This document shows, one piece after another, positions 9,548 to 16,693 of a stretch of 64,000 bases of DNA. This stretch comes from an uncultured Gammaproteobacteria bacterium (GTDB taxonomy: Bacteria; Pseudomonadota; Gammaproteobacteria; JAADHQ01). The notes beneath the pieces were generated by a model, which made no database searches, was not told where the DNA came from, and was given only the letters and a program-made list of their open reading frames with translations. Position numbers and translations under genes: made by a program. Each line of letters begins with the position of its first letter. The first letter of the stretch is position 1. The DNA is taken from assembly GCA_947258755.1 (NCBI GenBank), contig CAMYJO010000002.1, positions 4,768 through 68,767 on the forward strand, in the 5' to 3' direction.

Positions 9548-9727
9548 ATGGATACATCAAATAATGAATGGTGGCGCTGGAAACTGAACCGCAAAATTGC
9601 CGAATTTCTTAGCAGCCCGACACCGGAACAGGAAGCCACGCTGGGCTTTTTACTGACCAGTTATCGTGCCCTGCATAGGCCTCATGACAGCGATGCGGAG
9701 CCACAACAGGATCATAATCAGGCCTGA
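9548..9727 (+). CDS. 59-aa hypothetical protein below ORF-track cut-off
   Basis: MDTSNNEWWRWKLNRKIAEFLSSPTPEQEATLGFLLTSYRAL...; GGAG/AGGA upstream. Confidence 0.55.
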   Translation: MDTSNNEWWRWKLNRKIAEFLSSPTPEQEATLGFLLTSYRALHRPHDSDAEPQQDHNQA

Positions 9728-9958
9728 CCTGGTCACTCACTCACGCTCTCGTCGTTTTCACTCACATTCCTGCACACACAAGCCCTTCCCCGGATAAGCC
9801 GTTGAGCCCGCAGGCATTAACATAAGAAAGCCTGACCTACCCCTATTTGACGATTTTAATGTAACAAAGTGTAAATTCATCCTCGCAACTGACAGTAGCG
9901 GATGACCATTCGATATAAAGGGATTATAATAACCATAACAATGTAACAGGAGTTGACA

Positions 9959-10156
9959 ATGGCTATTCTGTCCTGGTTAAAATCCAAAAAACGCTTTACC
10001 CGTAAAAGTGCAGTTGATGAATTTCAAGAATTCGCAGAGGCTGAGGAAAAACGTCTACGCAGCGCTGATGCGGAATTCGACAAGGACATTTTCAAGCAGG
10101 CCGTCAAACTGGTGATGCACAAGCTTGAACCTGCCAACAAGGATTACAAGCCATGA
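9959..10156 (+). CDS. 65-aa hypothetical protein coupled to the SMC-like ATPase
   Basis: AGGAG before ATG 9959; ATGA overlap with next gene; amphipathic N-terminus MAILSWLKSKK. Confidence 0.75.
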   Translation: MAILSWLKSKKRFTRKSAVDEFQEFAEAEEKRLRSADAEFDKDIFKQAVKLVMHKLEPANKDYKP

Positions 10157-12381
10157 TCATCCACTCCATACATGCTACCAACGTCCTGAAATATGCCAAG
10201 CTCGACCTGGATAATATTCCGGAAAAAGGCATTATCGCCATCAGTGGTGCCAATGAGTCTGGTAAAACCGCCATTGTCGAAACGATTTGTTTCGCCCTGT
10301 TTGGCCGCACCTTCTCCAATGACCTAAATAACATTACCCGTACGATACGCTGGGGTGAATCCAATTGCTCAATAGAAATGGAGTTTACCGGCACCGGCAA
10401 TAACAGTTACACCGTTAACCGATCGGTCGATAAACAGGGTAAACATTCTGCCGAACTTTTCCGCAGCGGTGAAGATACACCGTTTGCTACCGGCCCGCAG
10501 GCCGTGCATGAAGAAATCACCAGTGTTTGTGGATTTGATTTCGAGCAATACCTCGACTCCCTGTACCTGGCGCAAATGGAAATTACATCTTCTGCTTCTC
10601 AGGAAGAAACCATTAAAGGTGTCTCAGGATCTGCCCCGATCGATGCGATCATGGATGACCTCAAACATGAAATCAGTATTGAGCAGGAAAGCATCAATGC
10701 CATCGAGCAGGAACAAAACCGTATCCGCACGCGTATAGAGGATATTGACATACAGGAAGACAGGTTGCCGCTCATCGAAACCGAAAAACAGCAATTTGCC
10801 GAACAGATCGATGCGCACAAGGAAGAAATCAAGATTGTCCAGGAAACCTCAAGCCAGATACATGATGCCGGCACCCAGATCCAGGAAAGCGGGCATGCGC
10901 TCAATGCAGCCGGCCGCAACCTCTCGGTCAACCAATGGAAAGAAAAACTGGGCTCGGTGACGGATGCCATTGACAATATGCGCGAATCCGTCAACACATT
11001 GGAAATGGAAACAGAGCTGCGCACGGGCGACGTATTAAAGAAATACACCGACACATTGCAATCACGCCTCGCAGGGTTTGAATCAGTCAATGAACAATGT
11101 AAAACATGTCGAAGCGAATTAGCAGCACAGTTGGGTGAGCGCGGCAGCAAGCCTGAAGATGGCAGCGTGCCACTGGCAAAACAGCGATCGGCCTTGAAAC
11201 GCCGTGTGTTGTCACAACGCCTGTATCGCGGCATCGCCAAAATAGTATTGGTGTTAGCGGTACTGGCAGCAATTTTGCTGTGGTCAGGCTGGGGTGTACT
11301 GACACAATTCCCGGACAGCAGCCTGTCCAGCTGGATCAGTAGTCAGGCATGGGCCGGAAACATCGAGGCATCATCACTGTTTAATAGCGCGATAGCCGCA
11401 TCCGTTATTACCTTACTGGTATTTGTGATGTCACTCCGCGTCGGCTCACGTATCAAACAGAACAAAAAAGAATTAGATACTGTTAATGAGCAGCTACAAA
11501 CCGTACGCATGCAGGCCGATGTGATCGACCATATTGATGACAAGCCATTCCCCGAAGTAAGCAAGGGGCTGGAGACGATCGATAACAAGGCGCTGAAATT
11601 CTCCCTTGAGAATTATATCGACAGTCATGGCAGCGCGTTTCTGTCCGAGCAGGGCTATGCCGATCACCAACAGAAACTGAACGGTCAGCTGGATGAGCAA
11701 GCCCATCATATTGCCAGCTTGCGCGAAGCCATCGCTACCCGCGTTGGCGCACTTAACCAACAAAGTGATGAGCTGCACGATAAGATCACCCGACTAGATC
11801 GTGAAATAGAAGACATACAGGCGCGTCAAAAAGAAGCGGTTGATCTGGAAATCATTATCGATAACATGGAAGGCCCGCTGGACGAACATCGCCAACGTGT
11901 GAAAGTACGTGAAATGGCATTAAGCCTGGCCAAGGGAACCTGCAGCAACATTTATAATAACTTCAATCAGATATTGAGCAAGTACTCTGCGATGATAATG
12001 CCCAAACTGACGGAGGGCCGCTACAAACAGATCCAGATCGACGATCAGCTGCATATACGTGTTTTTGCCACTGAGAAAAATGATTTTGCCGATCTCGATG
12101 AACTCTCCAGCGGCACGCAACGACAGATCATGCTGGCCGTACGCCTGGCCATATCCAAGGCCCTGGTTGAAGCTGGCCAGCATGGCAGGCAGTTCCTCAT
12201 TCTCGATGAACCCTTCGCCTTCTTTGATCGCGAGCGCATCCGCAATACCATCAAGGCCTTACCGGAGCTGGACAAAAATATCACCCAGTTCCTGATCCTG
12301 ACCCAGGAATTTGAATCAACCGATGATTTTGAATTAGCTATCCAATGCAACCGCGACAAGGACGAGTTGTCGATAAGCTAA
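10153..12381 (+). CDS. Rad50/SbcC/SMC-type coiled-coil ATPase with two central TM helices
   Basis: Walker A GANESGKT, Q-loop YLAQ, signature LSSG, Walker B LILDEP, coiled coils, hydrophobic helices near residues 364-385 and 412-430. Confidence 0.88.
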   Translation: MIIHSIHATNVLKYAKLDLDNIPEKGIIAISGANESGKTAIVETICFALFGRTFSNDLNNITRTIRWGESNCSIEMEFTGTGNNSYTVNRSVDKQGKHSAELFRSGEDTPFATGPQAVHEEITSVCGFDFEQYLDSLYLAQMEITSSASQEETIKGVSGSAPIDAIMDDLKHEISIEQESINAIEQEQNRIRTRIEDIDIQEDRLPLIETEKQQFAEQIDAHKEEIKIVQETSSQIHDAGTQIQESGHALNAAGRNLSVNQWKEKLGSVTDAIDNMRESVNTLEMETELRTGDVLKKYTDTLQSRLAGFESVNEQCKTCRSELAAQLGERGSKPEDGSVPLAKQRSALKRRVLSQRLYRGIAKIVLVLAVLAAILLWSGWGVLTQFPDSSLSSWISSQAWAGNIEASSLFNSAIAASVITLLVFVMSLRVGSRIKQNKKELDTVNEQLQTVRMQADVIDHIDDKPFPEVSKGLETIDNKALKFSLENYIDSHGSAFLSEQGYADHQQKLNGQLDEQAHHIASLREAIATRVGALNQQSDELHDKITRLDREIEDIQARQKEAVDLEIIIDNMEGPLDEHRQRVKVREMALSLAKGTCSNIYNNFNQILSKYSAMIMPKLTEGRYKQIQIDDQLHIRVFATEKNDFADLDELSSGTQRQIMLAVRLAISKALVEAGQHGRQFLILDEPFAFFDRERIRNTIKALPELDKNITQFLILTQEFESTDDFELAIQCNRDKDELSIS

Positions 12382-12387
12382 GCTTTA

Positions 12388-12418
12388 CTGACCGGTAAGC
12401 GAGTCGCTTGCCGGTCAG
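12388..12418. terminator. GC-rich hairpin between ATPase and patatin genes
   Basis: ctgaccggtaagcg/cgcttgccggtcag stem; no clear T-tract, so termination is uncertain. Confidence 0.35.
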
Positions 12419-12561
12419 CCACCCTACAATCAGCACCCCCATCCTGCTCGATAAGCGACCAACCCGACAGCGGTTTATATCAATGCGGTTTATTGATACA
12501 GTTCTGCTAAGATCTGCTTCATGCATCATCAGGACATGCCAGGATAGCGAGGTGGTGAAAA

Positions 12562-15138
12562 ATGACTGACAACGGCAACCAACACAGGGACAAACTCGGG
12601 CTAGCATTGGCCGGCGGTGGTTTCCGTGCCTCTCTTTTCCATATCGGTGTTTTACGGCGTATGGCCGAACTCGATATGCTGCGTTTCGTCGAGGTGTTAT
12701 CAACAGTCTCAGGCGGTTCGATTGTCGGCGCCTTGTATATACTGTTACTCAAACAGGAACTCGACAAAAAGGCCCGCCTCGACAAGGACGATTATCTACG
12801 CATTGTCGACAAACTCGAGCAACGCATGTGCAAGGCGATCAAAAAAAACCTGCGCGTGCGTCTGTTCCTGAATCCTTTCGGCACCCTCAGATTCCTGATG
12901 ACAGAGTATAGCCTGGGACGGCGCATGTCGCGCCTGTATGAGCGCTGCGTTTATAGTGAAACAGTTCGTGAACTGGAAAGCGGCATCGCCAAATGCGGTT
13001 GGACCAAAAAACCCTGGGTACCGGACTGGTTTCGACGTTGGAGCGCACCGGGACGCATTAACCTCAGTGATATCAAGATGCGGCCCGGCGGTCAGCCGAT
13101 CAGGGATGGTATTGAAACCTACAACCGCACCCAGGTCGAAACCAACGGTTCCGTCATCACCCAATTGATATTAAATGCCACGTCACTCAATTCCGGAGCG
13201 CGCTTTTGGTTTTCAGCCACTGAGATTGGTGACTGGGACCATGGCAATATTCGCCGCGACGAGATCAACACCATCCTGAAAAGAAAAAAGGCGCTGGCGA
13301 TGCTGGCCGCGAACAAAGCAGAGAGCGAGATTCAGCAAAAAATTCAGGATGCGGGCAAGCCCTTGTATCTCGATCTTGCACGTTGGTGGCTACAGGCCGA
13401 CTTTAACTCTCCTGTTGCAGGCATGGAGCCCTTGTTTGATGATTTTATGAGGCCGATCATCGTGGCCCTGTGCACAGCCGAACCCGGTAAGTTACGCATG
13501 GCCAAATTACCATCCTGGTACCTGCGCAAGGGCGCACAAATGCAACCGCCGATCACCGGTGGTCTCAGTAGCGAGCAACATCTACATAAGGTTGCCACGG
13601 TCATCGCCGAGATAGCGCATATCGTTCTGGACAAAGTCGAACATTGGATGCTGGCAAACTCAAAACGCTGCCAATTATTACTGGATTTTATTTATGAGCT
13701 GTATATCTTGCGCATGGCCGAGCGTGTATCGCCCAATATCAGCAAAGACTGGGACAAACTAACACTCGGTGATGCTGTGGGTGCATCGGCCAATTTCCCG
13801 CCGCTATTCCCACCCCTGCAAATTACTGGCATCTATGATGACATGCTGGTCAGCCGGCTCGGCCTGACCGATGGTGCGGTATTTGATAACATCGGCATTA
13901 CCGGCCTGACGGACGAGCAATGTAATCACATCATTGTCAGCGATACCGGCGGCCTATTAAATACGATGCAACGTTCGTCATCGGGGCGGCTCGGCATGAG
14001 CGCACGCATCATCAACATCCTGACCAACCGCGAAGCACGTCAGACCAGGGACCAGCTACTTGAACGCCACCGCGTCACTACCGGACTCAATCGTGAGGCT
14101 GCCTTTATTTCGACTTTAAACAATCAACAGGGCGGCAGCGACGAGTCTATTGAATCACAAGCGCATCATGCTGATGAACAACAGCTATCATTACAGTATC
14201 CCAAAAATACCGACGACACTTCGGATACGTGCCAAACATTACTGGATACAGTGCAACAAAGGCTGAAGACTTTTCGAAGCACCTATGCGCTGCATAGTCT
14301 GGCGATGTTTAACATCGACTCCGATGAGGTACCGACCGATGAGAATGCACCGGTCTCTCCGAGCGAGCTGATCCAGGTGCGTACCGACCTCGATGCCTTT
14401 GGTGATATAGAAATGTACGCCTTGATGAACCAGGGTTATATCAATGCCGATCATCACATCAGGCATTACATGAATCCACAAGATAGTCATGATCATGCAG
14501 CCAGCTCAGCTACAACCAACGACCACCCTTATCCATACAATCAGAATGGCGACTGGGAACAGGATGTGACATCGCCGTGGCTACCAGGCTTGTGTCAAAA
14601 CCGTGAACTGACCAAACGCACTATCAAACAGGCTAGTAAACGTTTTTTCAGAGCCCTACGTATGAAGCTGGTTTTTGCGTGGTTGATTACCTTGGCTGTA
14701 CTGGGTGCTATTGCCTGGTACTTTCGTGATACCCGCATATCCGGCGAAGCCGTGTCACAGGCCTTCAATAGTTTCAGCCTGCGCGAGACCTATTCTGTTT
14801 TTGCTTACCTACCGAGTGACTGGAGCCAACAATCATTTAATCTGGTCACCCTCACCGTAGCAATTTTGCTCATCGTATTGTTGTTCACCAACCTGCGTGC
14901 GCATTGGTTTGGCCTGGTAGATAAGCTGAAGGGCAAGTCATGGTTCGGGCTATCAAGATGGGGAGCCAAATTGGCACGCTTGCCAGGCGGTTACAAGGGC
15001 AACCTGCTGTGGATGGTATGGCTACCCTTGCCCGTCGCCATCGCCATGGGCATCAGCGCGGTCATGTATTTCTCGCACATATGCTACCGCTACCCTTTGC
15101 TGCATAAAACCCGTCTGGACAATAAAAAATCCAGGTAA
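12562..15138 (+). CDS. Patatin-like phospholipase, 858 aa, with C-terminal TM helices
   Basis: LALAGGGFRA oxyanion loop, STVSGGS nucleophile, TDGAVFDN catalytic Asp; hydrophobic helices in the last ~160 aa. Confidence 0.88.
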   Translation: MTDNGNQHRDKLGLALAGGGFRASLFHIGVLRRMAELDMLRFVEVLSTVSGGSIVGALYILLLKQELDKKARLDKDDYLRIVDKLEQRMCKAIKKNLRVRLFLNPFGTLRFLMTEYSLGRRMSRLYERCVYSETVRELESGIAKCGWTKKPWVPDWFRRWSAPGRINLSDIKMRPGGQPIRDGIETYNRTQVETNGSVITQLILNATSLNSGARFWFSATEIGDWDHGNIRRDEINTILKRKKALAMLAANKAESEIQQKIQDAGKPLYLDLARWWLQADFNSPVAGMEPLFDDFMRPIIVALCTAEPGKLRMAKLPSWYLRKGAQMQPPITGGLSSEQHLHKVATVIAEIAHIVLDKVEHWMLANSKRCQLLLDFIYELYILRMAERVSPNISKDWDKLTLGDAVGASANFPPLFPPLQITGIYDDMLVSRLGLTDGAVFDNIGITGLTDEQCNHIIVSDTGGLLNTMQRSSSGRLGMSARIINILTNREARQTRDQLLERHRVTTGLNREAAFISTLNNQQGGSDESIESQAHHADEQQLSLQYPKNTDDTSDTCQTLLDTVQQRLKTFRSTYALHSLAMFNIDSDEVPTDENAPVSPSELIQVRTDLDAFGDIEMYALMNQGYINADHHIRHYMNPQDSHDHAASSATTNDHPYPYNQNGDWEQDVTSPWLPGLCQNRELTKRTIKQASKRFFRALRMKLVFAWLITLAVLGAIAWYFRDTRISGEAVSQAFNSFSLRETYSVFAYLPSDWSQQSFNLVTLTVAILLIVLLFTNLRAHWFGLVDKLKGKSWFGLSRWGAKLARLPGGYKGNLLWMVWLPLPVAIAMGISAVMYFSHICYRYPLLHKTRLDNKKSR

Positions 15139-15151
15139 GCGCTGTCAGGAT

Positions 15152-16693
15152 TTACCTGGCAATACGCGCAGACGAAATAACCACCTGCACATTTCTGGCA
15201 TAGGCGCGATTAACACTGAGATTCAGGTTAACCCTGTTTTTCTCACCCGCATTCAGGCGACCCTGCAATGGTCGCGCGACCTGACGCATGCGTCCACTAC
15301 TATCCGGGTAACGGATTTGCAAGACGATGCCCGTCACTGCCTCCGGCGTGGTGTTGTGCAGGTCTGCCAACAATCGTCCACTCTTATCCAATCCGGCGCG
15401 CACGCTGATGTACTTACCGGGGTTATCTTTCAGATCCATTTTCACCAGCGATGAAAATGCGGCCTTACCGGCATCACTGCTGCTGCTGGATGCCTTGGCG
15501 TAGTATTGCTTTGCTTCATTATAACGTCGCTCAGTACTGGCGATATCACCCAGGGCCTTATAGGCATTGGCTGTCGGTAGCAGCTTCACGCTCTTTTCAA
15601 GATCAGACTTTGCCGGGCCTCTTTTATTAAGACGATTATTGACCAGGCCACGCTGCAGGTAGTAATAAAAGAAATCGTTATTGAGTTGTATCGCCTTGTT
15701 ATAGTCTTTATAGGCCGTGTTATAGCGTTTACGCTTCTGTTCGATATCACCCAGCAATGAATGAAAATGGCCTTCACGTGGCTCCTGTGCAATTGCCTGC
15801 CTGATCAGGCTTTTCGCCTGCGACACCTGCCCCTTGGACAAGGCCTTCTGTGCTTCATCATATTTTTTATAGGCAGGCTTGGTCTTAATCAGACGCGCCA
15901 TTTTTTGCTGATAGCGTTGACGACCGATGATGCCGCCCTTAGGCAGAGCGGCTGCCATTTTAATATTGTTTTGTACGCGCTCCTGCGATGCCGGGTGACT
16001 GGAAAACAAGCCACTGAGCCAGTCCTGGCGTTTATCTTCGGACAGCTTAACGAAGGTTTTTTGCAAGTCAACCGCGCCTTGCGGATCATAGCCGGCGCGC
16101 GCCATATATTTCATGCCATAAAGATCAGATTCACGCTCGGCATCACGACCATATTTTTGGTTGATTAACTGTGCACCTACTGACGCGCCGATCTCGGCGG
16201 CATTGGCATAATCCTTACCCTGGGTGGCGATCGATGCCGCCACGATCAAGCCTTGTAATAACATACCGCGCTGCATACCTTGCGCGCTGTGCTTGGCGGC
16301 GGCATGCACAATTTCATGCCCGAGTACGGCTGCCAGCTCGGCCTCGCTTTTCAACTCGGTCAACAGACCACGGTTGATTGCAATTTTTCCACCCGGTAAT
16401 GCCCAGGCGTTCGGTACAGAATTATTAAGTACGGTAAATTCATAGGGGAGCTTACGATCACTAACGGCAGCCAGACGTTGTCCGACTTCATTGACATACG
16501 CGGTTAATCCCTTATCGACTTCATAATCGCCACCCTGGGATTGTCGCATTGGCAGATACTGCTTTTGTCCAATGCTCAGCTCCTGCGCCTCGGATATCAG
16601 GCTAAGCTCTTTCTTTCCCGTTACCGGGTTGGTGCTGCATGCACTGGTCAGTAAAATGATGATCGCGGGGAATACGAATCTCGACAGTTTCAT
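15152..16693 (-). CDS. M48-family zinc metalloprotease lipoprotein with TPR repeats
   Basis: Lipobox LTSAC, PNAWALPGG, HEIVH, YGRDAERESD, SSHP. Confidence 0.9.
   Translation of the reverse strand: MKLSRFVFPAIIILLTSACSTNPVTGKKELSLISEAQELSIGQKQYLPMRQSQGGDYEVDKGLTAYVNEVGQRLAAVSDRKLPYEFTVLNNSVPNAWALPGGKIAINRGLLTELKSEAELAAVLGHEIVHAAAKHSAQGMQRGMLLQGLIVAASIATQGKDYANAAEIGASVGAQLINQKYGRDAERESDLYGMKYMARAGYDPQGAVDLQKTFVKLSEDKRQDWLSGLFSSHPASQERVQNNIKMAAALPKGGIIGRQRYQQKMARLIKTKPAYKKYDEAQKALSKGQVSQAKSLIRQAIAQEPREGHFHSLLGDIEQKRKRYNTAYKDYNKAIQLNNDFFYYYLQRGLVNNRLNKRGPAKSDLEKSVKLLPTANAYKALGDIASTERRYNEAKQYYAKASSSSSDAGKAAFSSLVKMDLKDNPGKYISVRAGLDKSGRLLADLHNTTPEAVTGIVLQIRYPDSSGRMRQVARPLQGRLNAGEKNRVNLNLSVNRAYARNVQVVISSARIAR

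Follow-up and report, generated by a model that had tools for sequence, protein, structure and literature searches.

Do three genes that follow one another on the same strand make up one system, or are they merely neighbors? This question is raised by positions 9959 to 15138 of a 64,000-nucleotide stretch of DNA from an uncultured gammaproteobacterium (contig CAMYJO010000002.1; this whole stretch is called the window below), in which a gene for a 65-residue protein is followed by a gene for a Rad50-like ATPase and a gene for a patatin-like lipase. An earlier interpretation made from the DNA alone, here called the sequence-only reading, proposed that the three genes encode a Lamassu-like or novel DNA-sensing system that triggers membrane lysis, or else a membrane-remodelling module. 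The three co-directional genes that it described are present in the list of open reading frames (ORFs) at 9953/9959-10156, 10153-12381, and 12562-15138, all on the forward strand, as are the other features given below unless noted. We conclude that the interval probably comprises two separate units whose adjacency is a matter of descent, an operon of the small protein and the ATPase and a stand-alone patatin. The two-gene module is a broadly conserved, uncharacterized, nuclease-free Rad50-like machine with a predicted integration into the membrane.

To compare the neighborhoods of the ATPase across genomes, a profile built from 16 homologues was searched against genome contigs with one genome per species, which yielded 507 loci. 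The neighborhood counts refer to the best 78 of these, taken with 7-kb flanks on either side, and the 78 loci derive from Gammaproteobacteria, Binatia, Phycisphaerae/Planctomycetota, Magnetococcales, and a few other groups. ORFs in these loci were called by a simple longest-ORF rule, the neighbors encoded in the window were sought by tblastn (the small protein also by a hidden Markov model, HMM), and all ORFs were clustered. The taxonomic labels of the metagenome-assembled genomes (MAGs) are partly wrong: three MAGs labeled Enterobacteriaceae fall among the Binatia and have the gene order that is typical of Binatia loci. With the HMM, the small protein was recovered immediately ahead of the ATPase in 73 of the 76 testable loci; the stop and start codons usually overlap or abut, the overlap being 4 bp in most cases, and the pairing spans Gammaproteobacteria, Binatia, Planctomycetota, and Magnetococcales. 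The association of these two genes, as the sequence-only reading had supposed, is therefore borne out across several phyla. A patatin was detected downstream of the ATPase by tblastn in 2 of the 78 genome loci (L001 and L003), which are the closest relatives and share the synteny of radical-SAM, hemB, cupin, and M48 genes with the window, and on one metagenome contig (L085) that preserves the full synteny of the window, the patatin included. The co-occurrence check suggested in the sequence-only reading was thus answered in two ways, with a near-obligate pairing for the small ORF but with a rare adjacency for the patatin. Because homologues of the ATPase rarely neighbor a patatin, and do so in fully syntenic close relatives, the outcome is the one that the same reading had named in advance as counting against itself.

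Clustering of all ORFs within 7 kb on either side at the 78 loci gave no third conserved neighbor besides the 65-residue protein, and neither Mre11/SbcD nor any other nuclease was conserved beside the ATPase in any clade of these loci. The gene downstream of the ATPase varies by clade: it may begin a run of lysA, methyltransferase, dapF, and DUF484 genes, a run of acyl-CoA dehydrogenase, SDR, LLM, and murI genes, or be rsmE, and further clade-specific downstream genes encode a GT4 glycosyltransferase, an M14 peptidase, a PBP, a phosphoribulokinase (PRK), CcsA, and DUF520. Relatives with 59-65% identity have unrelated, ordinary flanks (ClC channel, nitroreductase, PEMT, MscS, HDOD, and glycoside hydrolase genes), and the synteny of the module is stable over approximately 17 Binatia genomes. 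In two separate ATPase clades, a gene for a PEMT/ICMT-like membrane methyltransferase (L004, 5526-6272; also L016, L042, L019, L059, and L066) lies immediately ahead of the module, an arrangement that could be due to chance.

The two units come apart physically on contig k141_837572 of a further close relative (L086, 4245-6491; L087, 5001-7502). The order of radical-SAM, hemB, cupin, a 57-residue ORF, the small ORF, and the ATPase is intact there, and an inversion of approximately 10 kb runs from the patatin onwards with one breakpoint located exactly between the ATPase and the patatin. As a result, approximately 10 kb separate the patatin from the ATPase, the two genes are on opposite strands, and the patatin is still convergent with the gene of the M48-TPR peptidase. 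Because the breakpoint falls between the ATPase and the patatin, we conclude that the patatin travels with the M48 gene and not with the ATPase. Four other relatives of the patatin, with 35-41% identity, are solitary genes whose contexts are unrelated and include no SMC-like gene in the vicinity. These comparisons indicate that the patatin is an independent, stand-alone neighbor outside the conserved module, and its adjacency to the ATPase would reflect descent in one lineage.

Several observations weigh against our reading, and some of them speak for the alternative in which the three genes form one Lamassu-like abortive-infection system, with the ATPase and its partner sensing foreign DNA and activating lysis by the patatin. 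The adjacency of ATPase and patatin persists in 4 confirmed close relatives, among them L001, L003, and L085. The prediction of membrane anchors in both large proteins also held, with two hydrophobic segments in the ATPase and three near the C terminus of the patatin, so that both are membrane proteins. No sigma-70-like promoter was found in the 180-bp gap between these co-directional genes and the hairpin in the gap carries no U tract, so that read-through into the patatin gene is possible in this genome. Furthermore, for the mechanism proposed below, we infer rather than observe the dimerization through a membrane hairpin, the binding of the small protein, and the DNA substrate. The Lamassu-like alternative can also draw on the variable effectors of Lamassu systems (PMC10586767) and on the match of the ATPase, over its full length, to the LmuB model PDLC03859 of PADLOC (E = 1.6e-22, 78.5 bits). 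In the PADLOC check that had been suggested, the other LmuB models were matched weakly, mad3, PbeC, and DndD were matched as well, and the ATPase scores better against Rad50 heads than against the LmuB model. Such matches are what any Rad50-like head would give. Neither the patatin (at E ≤ 0.1) nor the small protein had a PADLOC match, the patatin is absent beside 76 of the 78 homologues, the inversion separates the genes in L086/L087, and members of the patatin family stand alone elsewhere. Moreover, the gene order is not LmuA-LmuC-LmuB, the Walker B Glu is kept, and a zinc hook is lacking. Housekeeping genes make up the surroundings, as the sequence-only reading had itself cautioned and as annotation of the flanks confirmed. 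We therefore regard a three-gene Lamassu-like system as highly improbable. The base composition is host-like, as the same reading had also remarked, with 48-53% GC across the interval and the same in the flanks. Since the patatin is not an effector of the ATPase on our reading, a catalogue of Lamassu-like defense systems should not include this locus, and for the original finding this negative is the useful result.

The first unit has the layout of a compact operon. The ATG at 9959 gives a product of 65 residues whose MAILSW start agrees with the homologues, and it is preceded by the Shine-Dalgarno sequence AGGAG at a distance of 7 nt. The stop codon of the small ORF and the start codon of the ATPase overlap by 4 bp as ATGA. 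A sigma-70-like promoter for the two genes (ATGACC-17-TATAAT, 9902-9930), with 10 of 12 matches, is the best promoter-like site between 9300 and 15400, and its parts ATGAcCAT and ATTATAAT are kept in an alignment of five relatives. The same alignment contains an invariant block upstream of this promoter, inside an otherwise diverged spacer and approximately 27 nt from the -35 hexamer, consisting of the direct repeat TGTAAC-AAAG-TGTAAA (9860-9875; GTAAC-AAAGT-GTAAA in the pattern GTAA[CT]-N5-GTAAA). We take this repeat to be similar to the CpxR-type (OmpR-family) box GTAAA-N5-GTAAA, and it is a possible binding site of an OmpR-family response regulator. The pattern is not statistically enriched in the window, and other clades lack the repeat ahead of the module, making it a clade-specific lead. 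At the other end of the operon, the hairpin at 12388-12418 that had been reported in the 180-bp gap is real: it begins 7 nt past the ATPase stop codon, has a 14-bp stem and a folding energy of -26.4 kcal/mol (z = -5.66), and is unique in the window. Relatives bear differing hairpins after the ATPase stop codon, that of L002 being a canonical terminator, and the hairpin of the window is a probable 3' end or stabilizer of the two-gene transcript. The region upstream of the patatin is weakly conserved in an alignment of five relatives, too weakly for a promoter to be called; the patatin is probably expressed from signals of its own. Neither the Rfam scan nor the tRNA scan of the region gave a match. 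A 59-residue ORF (9548-9727), situated between the module and the cupin gene, is shared, at 68-81% identity, with the closest relatives only (L001, L003, L085, and L086). This ORF matched nothing in Pfam, PADLOC, or NCBIfam and falls outside the widely conserved module.

The 65-residue partner protein (9959-10156) is predicted to be a helical hairpin. Its helices comprise residues 18-36 and 42-56, residues F22, F40-D41, A48, and L56 are conserved, and the core of the AlphaFold model has a pLDDT of approximately 90. The family contains 282 representative clusters, the best 150 of which are all small proteins of 50-137 residues. No fusion proteins occur among these best 150 of 282 matches, and the family therefore offers no Rosetta-stone clue. 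Searches of Pfam, PDB sequences, Foldseek, and PADLOC returned no significant relative, and a PHROG match was marginal only. In a divergent clade (L065, L068, and L073) the small protein was not detected upstream of the ATPase; a protein of 131-170 residues, which by eye only resembles Hsp15/S4-domain proteins, is encoded there instead.

The second protein of the module (10153-12381; 742 residues) was identified by profile, Foldseek, and hydropathy analyses as a Rad50-like coiled-coil ABC ATPase with a predicted membrane anchor at its apex. It scores 47 bits with the Pfam family SMC_N against a cut-off of 40 and 44.7 bits with AAA_23 against one of 27, and it possesses the Walker A motif GANESGKT, the Q-loop YLAQ, the signature LSSGTQRQ, and the Walker B motif ILDEPF. 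In the family alignment (A1), residues G32, N34, E35, G37, and K38 of Walker A (residues 32-39, 10246-10269) are invariant, as are S652, G654, T655, R657, and Q658 of the signature (residues 651-658, 12103-12126), which aligns with LSGGEQ of Methanocaldococcus jannaschii Rad50. Walker B (FLILDE, residues 681-686, 12193-12210) retains the catalytic Glu, with D685 and E686 invariant. At the H-loop position the His is replaced by Gln (Q718, 12304-12306), which is also invariant in A1 and aligns with the His of IITH in the same archaeal Rad50; this Gln may slow ATP hydrolysis. When the family profile was compared with the PDB, the Rad50 heads 5f3w and 3aux (M. jannaschii) were matched at E = 1e-40, and a Foldseek search with the ATPase model gave 7zr1, Rad50 of an MRN complex, as the top match and also retrieved Smc5/6, MukB, and LmuB. 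All NCBIfam models of Rad50 and SbcC remained far below their cut-offs.

The apex of the coiled coil consists of a predicted transmembrane hairpin (11242-11445) in which the first segment (residues 364-382, hydropathy 2.46) and the second (residues 413-431, hydropathy 2.11) are joined by a loop of approximately 30 residues. In the AlphaFold model of the ATPase (mean pLDDT of 81.5) these segments are continuous with two long antiparallel coiled-coil helices. In 65 of 74 relatives, both segments reach a hydropathy score of 1.6 or more; the median loop length is 28.5 residues, and Lys/Arg residues number 4 and 3 in the flanks of the hairpin versus 1 in the loop. The enrichment of Lys/Arg on the outer flanks fits a hairpin with both termini inside and the heads in the cytoplasm. 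A zinc hook was considered and rejected: the window ATPase has a CKTC sequence in its N-terminal coiled-coil arm that its relatives do not conserve, and CxxC occurs in the central region of 5 of 77 relatives only. In a short-arm subfamily (P0104-P0120) of approximately 630 residues, the transmembrane hairpin is retained and the C-terminal arm contains an acidic insert of low complexity.

What this module does can be approached from the distribution of the ATPase. One alternative to our own account is that the two genes alone serve in defense or in the surveillance of DNA entry at the inner membrane, where foreign DNA enters, with the hairpin itself perturbing the membrane or with an effector encoded at an unlinked site. 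The matches of the ATPase to the LmuB, mad3, PbeC, and DndD models would agree with such a role, the small partner brings a middle component to mind, and the contexts differ among relatives of 59-65% identity. The tree of the ATPase, however, clusters by phylum, with 6 label changes compared to 24.7 in shuffles and with the Planctomycetota as one clade, and it is thus largely congruent with taxonomy; synteny is stable in Binatia. In addition, no defense genes were present among the annotated neighbors of the ATPase loci, no effector is conserved there, and a tblastn search of 72,556 plasmids and 50,697 phages, collections that are biased to cultured hosts whereas the ATPase family is known from MAGs only, revealed no full-length relative and only generic head-domain matches. 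We consider a defense function for the module to be unlikely, and clearly so.

Our own account, offered tentatively and with less than even confidence, is that the module represents an undescribed, nuclease-free, SMC-like class in the Gram-negative inner membrane, which would act either as a clamp or surveyor of DNA or as the first coiled-coil ABC ATPase of the envelope, and in which the patatin has no part. The analysis shows a bicistronic, translationally coupled operon, complete motifs for the binding and hydrolysis of ATP, and no conserved nuclease or effector, and the antiparallel coiled coil of the ATPase is predicted to end in the transmembrane hairpin with both termini in the cytoplasm. 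In the mechanism that we propose on this basis, two protomers would pair via their membrane hairpins, in place of a zinc hook, and the heads, at the end of an arm of approximately 190 residues, would be located in the cytoplasm roughly 25-30 nm from the membrane. Engagement of the heads, driven by ATP, would then close a ring between the heads and the membrane. The small protein may dock on the head or on the base or neck of the coiled coil and act as a regulator, in the manner of the Rad50-binding helices of Mre11 or of a kleisin. The substrate would be DNA that is held or monitored at the inner membrane, which is the likeliest candidate by homology and also the weakest step of the scheme.

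This last step is where a further alternative enters, in which the module does not act on DNA and serves as an ATP-driven membrane tether, a scaffold, or an envelope-stress factor, the engagement of the heads bridging or organizing membrane-anchored protomers. Such a role would suit the permanent membrane hairpin with its conserved juxtamembrane residues and the lack of a nuclease partner; the GTAA[CT]-N5-GTAAA repeat upstream of the module in this clade, being of the OmpR-family-regulator type, and the PEMT-like membrane methyltransferase nearby in two ATPase clades point in the same direction. The head is nevertheless closest to that of Rad50, a DNA-binding protein, the regulator box is clade-specific and lacks statistical enrichment, and no membrane or lipid partners are conserved. 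On balance, a function away from DNA seems to us rather unlikely.

The second unit, the patatin (12562-15138), is predicted to be an integral-membrane, patatin-like lipase of 858 residues (PF01734, 63.1 bits; cut-off 27.7). The claim that its catalytic motifs are intact was correct in so far as the oxyanion motif GGGFR (12613-12627), the nucleophile Ser50 in T-V-S50-G-G (12703-12717), and Asp437 in D437-G-A (13870-13878) are invariant in 12 family members (alignment A3), but the nucleophile motif departs from the canonical G-x-S-x-G, its first Gly being Thr across the whole family. Hydropathy analysis located three C-terminal hydrophobic segments (14668-14724, 14833-14889, and 15007-15063). 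A conserved stretch of about 300 residues (residues ~110-400, window 12871-13800) splits the catalytic domain between the Ser and Asp motifs and contains many invariant residues, such as N205-T207-L209-N210 and W319. The family is large, with more than 1146 matches of approximately 800 residues at full-length coverage. We propose that the protein would be a stand-alone acyl hydrolase of the inner membrane with a cytoplasm-facing Ser50-Asp437 dyad, and its role is likely to be in phospholipid turnover. Convergent with the patatin gene is a gene on the reverse strand (15152-16693) for a 513-residue peptidase that matches Peptidase_M48 of Pfam, has faint TPR matches in its L085 orthologue, and resembles the BepA/YfgC type. 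Compared to known patatin-like phospholipases (PlpD, the RssA type, and CapV), the protein of the window shares the GGGxR oxyanion hole, the Ser nucleophile, and the Asp of DG[AG] but differs in its length of 858 residues, its split of approximately 300 residues, its three C-terminal hydrophobic segments, and its T-x-S-x-G motif. The only solved relative found by sequence was PlpD, at 3e-6 over the N-terminal 50 residues. Assignment to the CapV effectors of CBASS is not indicated, since there was no PADLOC match and no CD-NTase neighbor, the neighbors being the ATPase and the M48-TPR peptidase.

SMC and Rad50 proteins are defined by the tip of their arms, a hinge or a zinc hook, and by their partners, a kleisin or Mre11. 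The ATPase family described here replaces the tip with a predicted membrane hairpin and the partner with a 65-residue helical hairpin, is without a nuclease, and occurs in at least four phyla and 507 species-level loci. In the literature searched, the scope of which did not extend to the ABC ATPase classification of Krishnan et al. 2020, we found no description of this family. A module that clamps DNA at the membrane would bear on the handling of the chromosome or of incoming DNA at the envelope, and one that leaves DNA alone would extend coiled-coil ABC ATPases to membrane biology. The likeness of the ATPase to Rad50/SbcC (SbcCD, Mre11-Rad50) consists in a bipartite ABC head, which carries both Walker motifs, the Q-loop, and the signature, and in a long antiparallel coiled coil. 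The window ATPase differs from these proteins by having an apex in which a transmembrane hairpin replaces the CxxC zinc hook, no adjacent Mre11/SbcD nuclease, a 65-residue helical hairpin as partner, and an invariant Gln in place of the H-loop His.

Among studied proteins, the closest parallel to a hydrophobic apex is offered by SbcE (YhaN) of Bacillus subtilis, an SMC-like, SbcC-related protein that lacks CxxC, works with the SbcD-like nuclease SbcF (YhaO), and acts with it in double-strand break repair and competence (PMC2811018). The conserved central domain of SbcE, which separates the coiled coils, has a first half with many hydrophobic residues, and this domain is insoluble on overproduction (PMC2811018). 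SbcE, however, belongs to Gram-positive hosts, has heptad-repeat regions of approximately 300 residues each, and is partnered by the nuclease SbcF, whereas the module of the window belongs to Gram-negative hosts, is without a nuclease, and has another partner. The family model of SbcE/YhaN, PF13514 (AAA_27), gave 14.1 bits with the window ATPase (E = 0.036), below its cut-off of 22. Lamassu systems comprise LmuA, which has an enzymatic N-terminal effector domain and a C-terminal docking domain, together with LmuC and LmuB, the last being a protein of approximately 650 residues that often has a zinc hook and generally carries a Glu-to-Gln change in Walker B (PMC10586767). The module resembles Lamassu (LmuA-LmuC-LmuB or DdmABC) in combining a short Rad50-like ATPase with a small accessory protein, and LmuB structures appeared at rank 21 of the Foldseek matches. 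It differs in that no LmuA-type effector is conserved at the loci of the ATPase and the context is not a defense island; unlike LmuC, the 65-residue protein has no PADLOC, Pfam, or PDB match and is encoded upstream of the ATPase rather than between an effector and LmuB. In comparison to LmuB itself, the window ATPase keeps the Walker B Glu, and its apex is a membrane hairpin and not a zinc hook.

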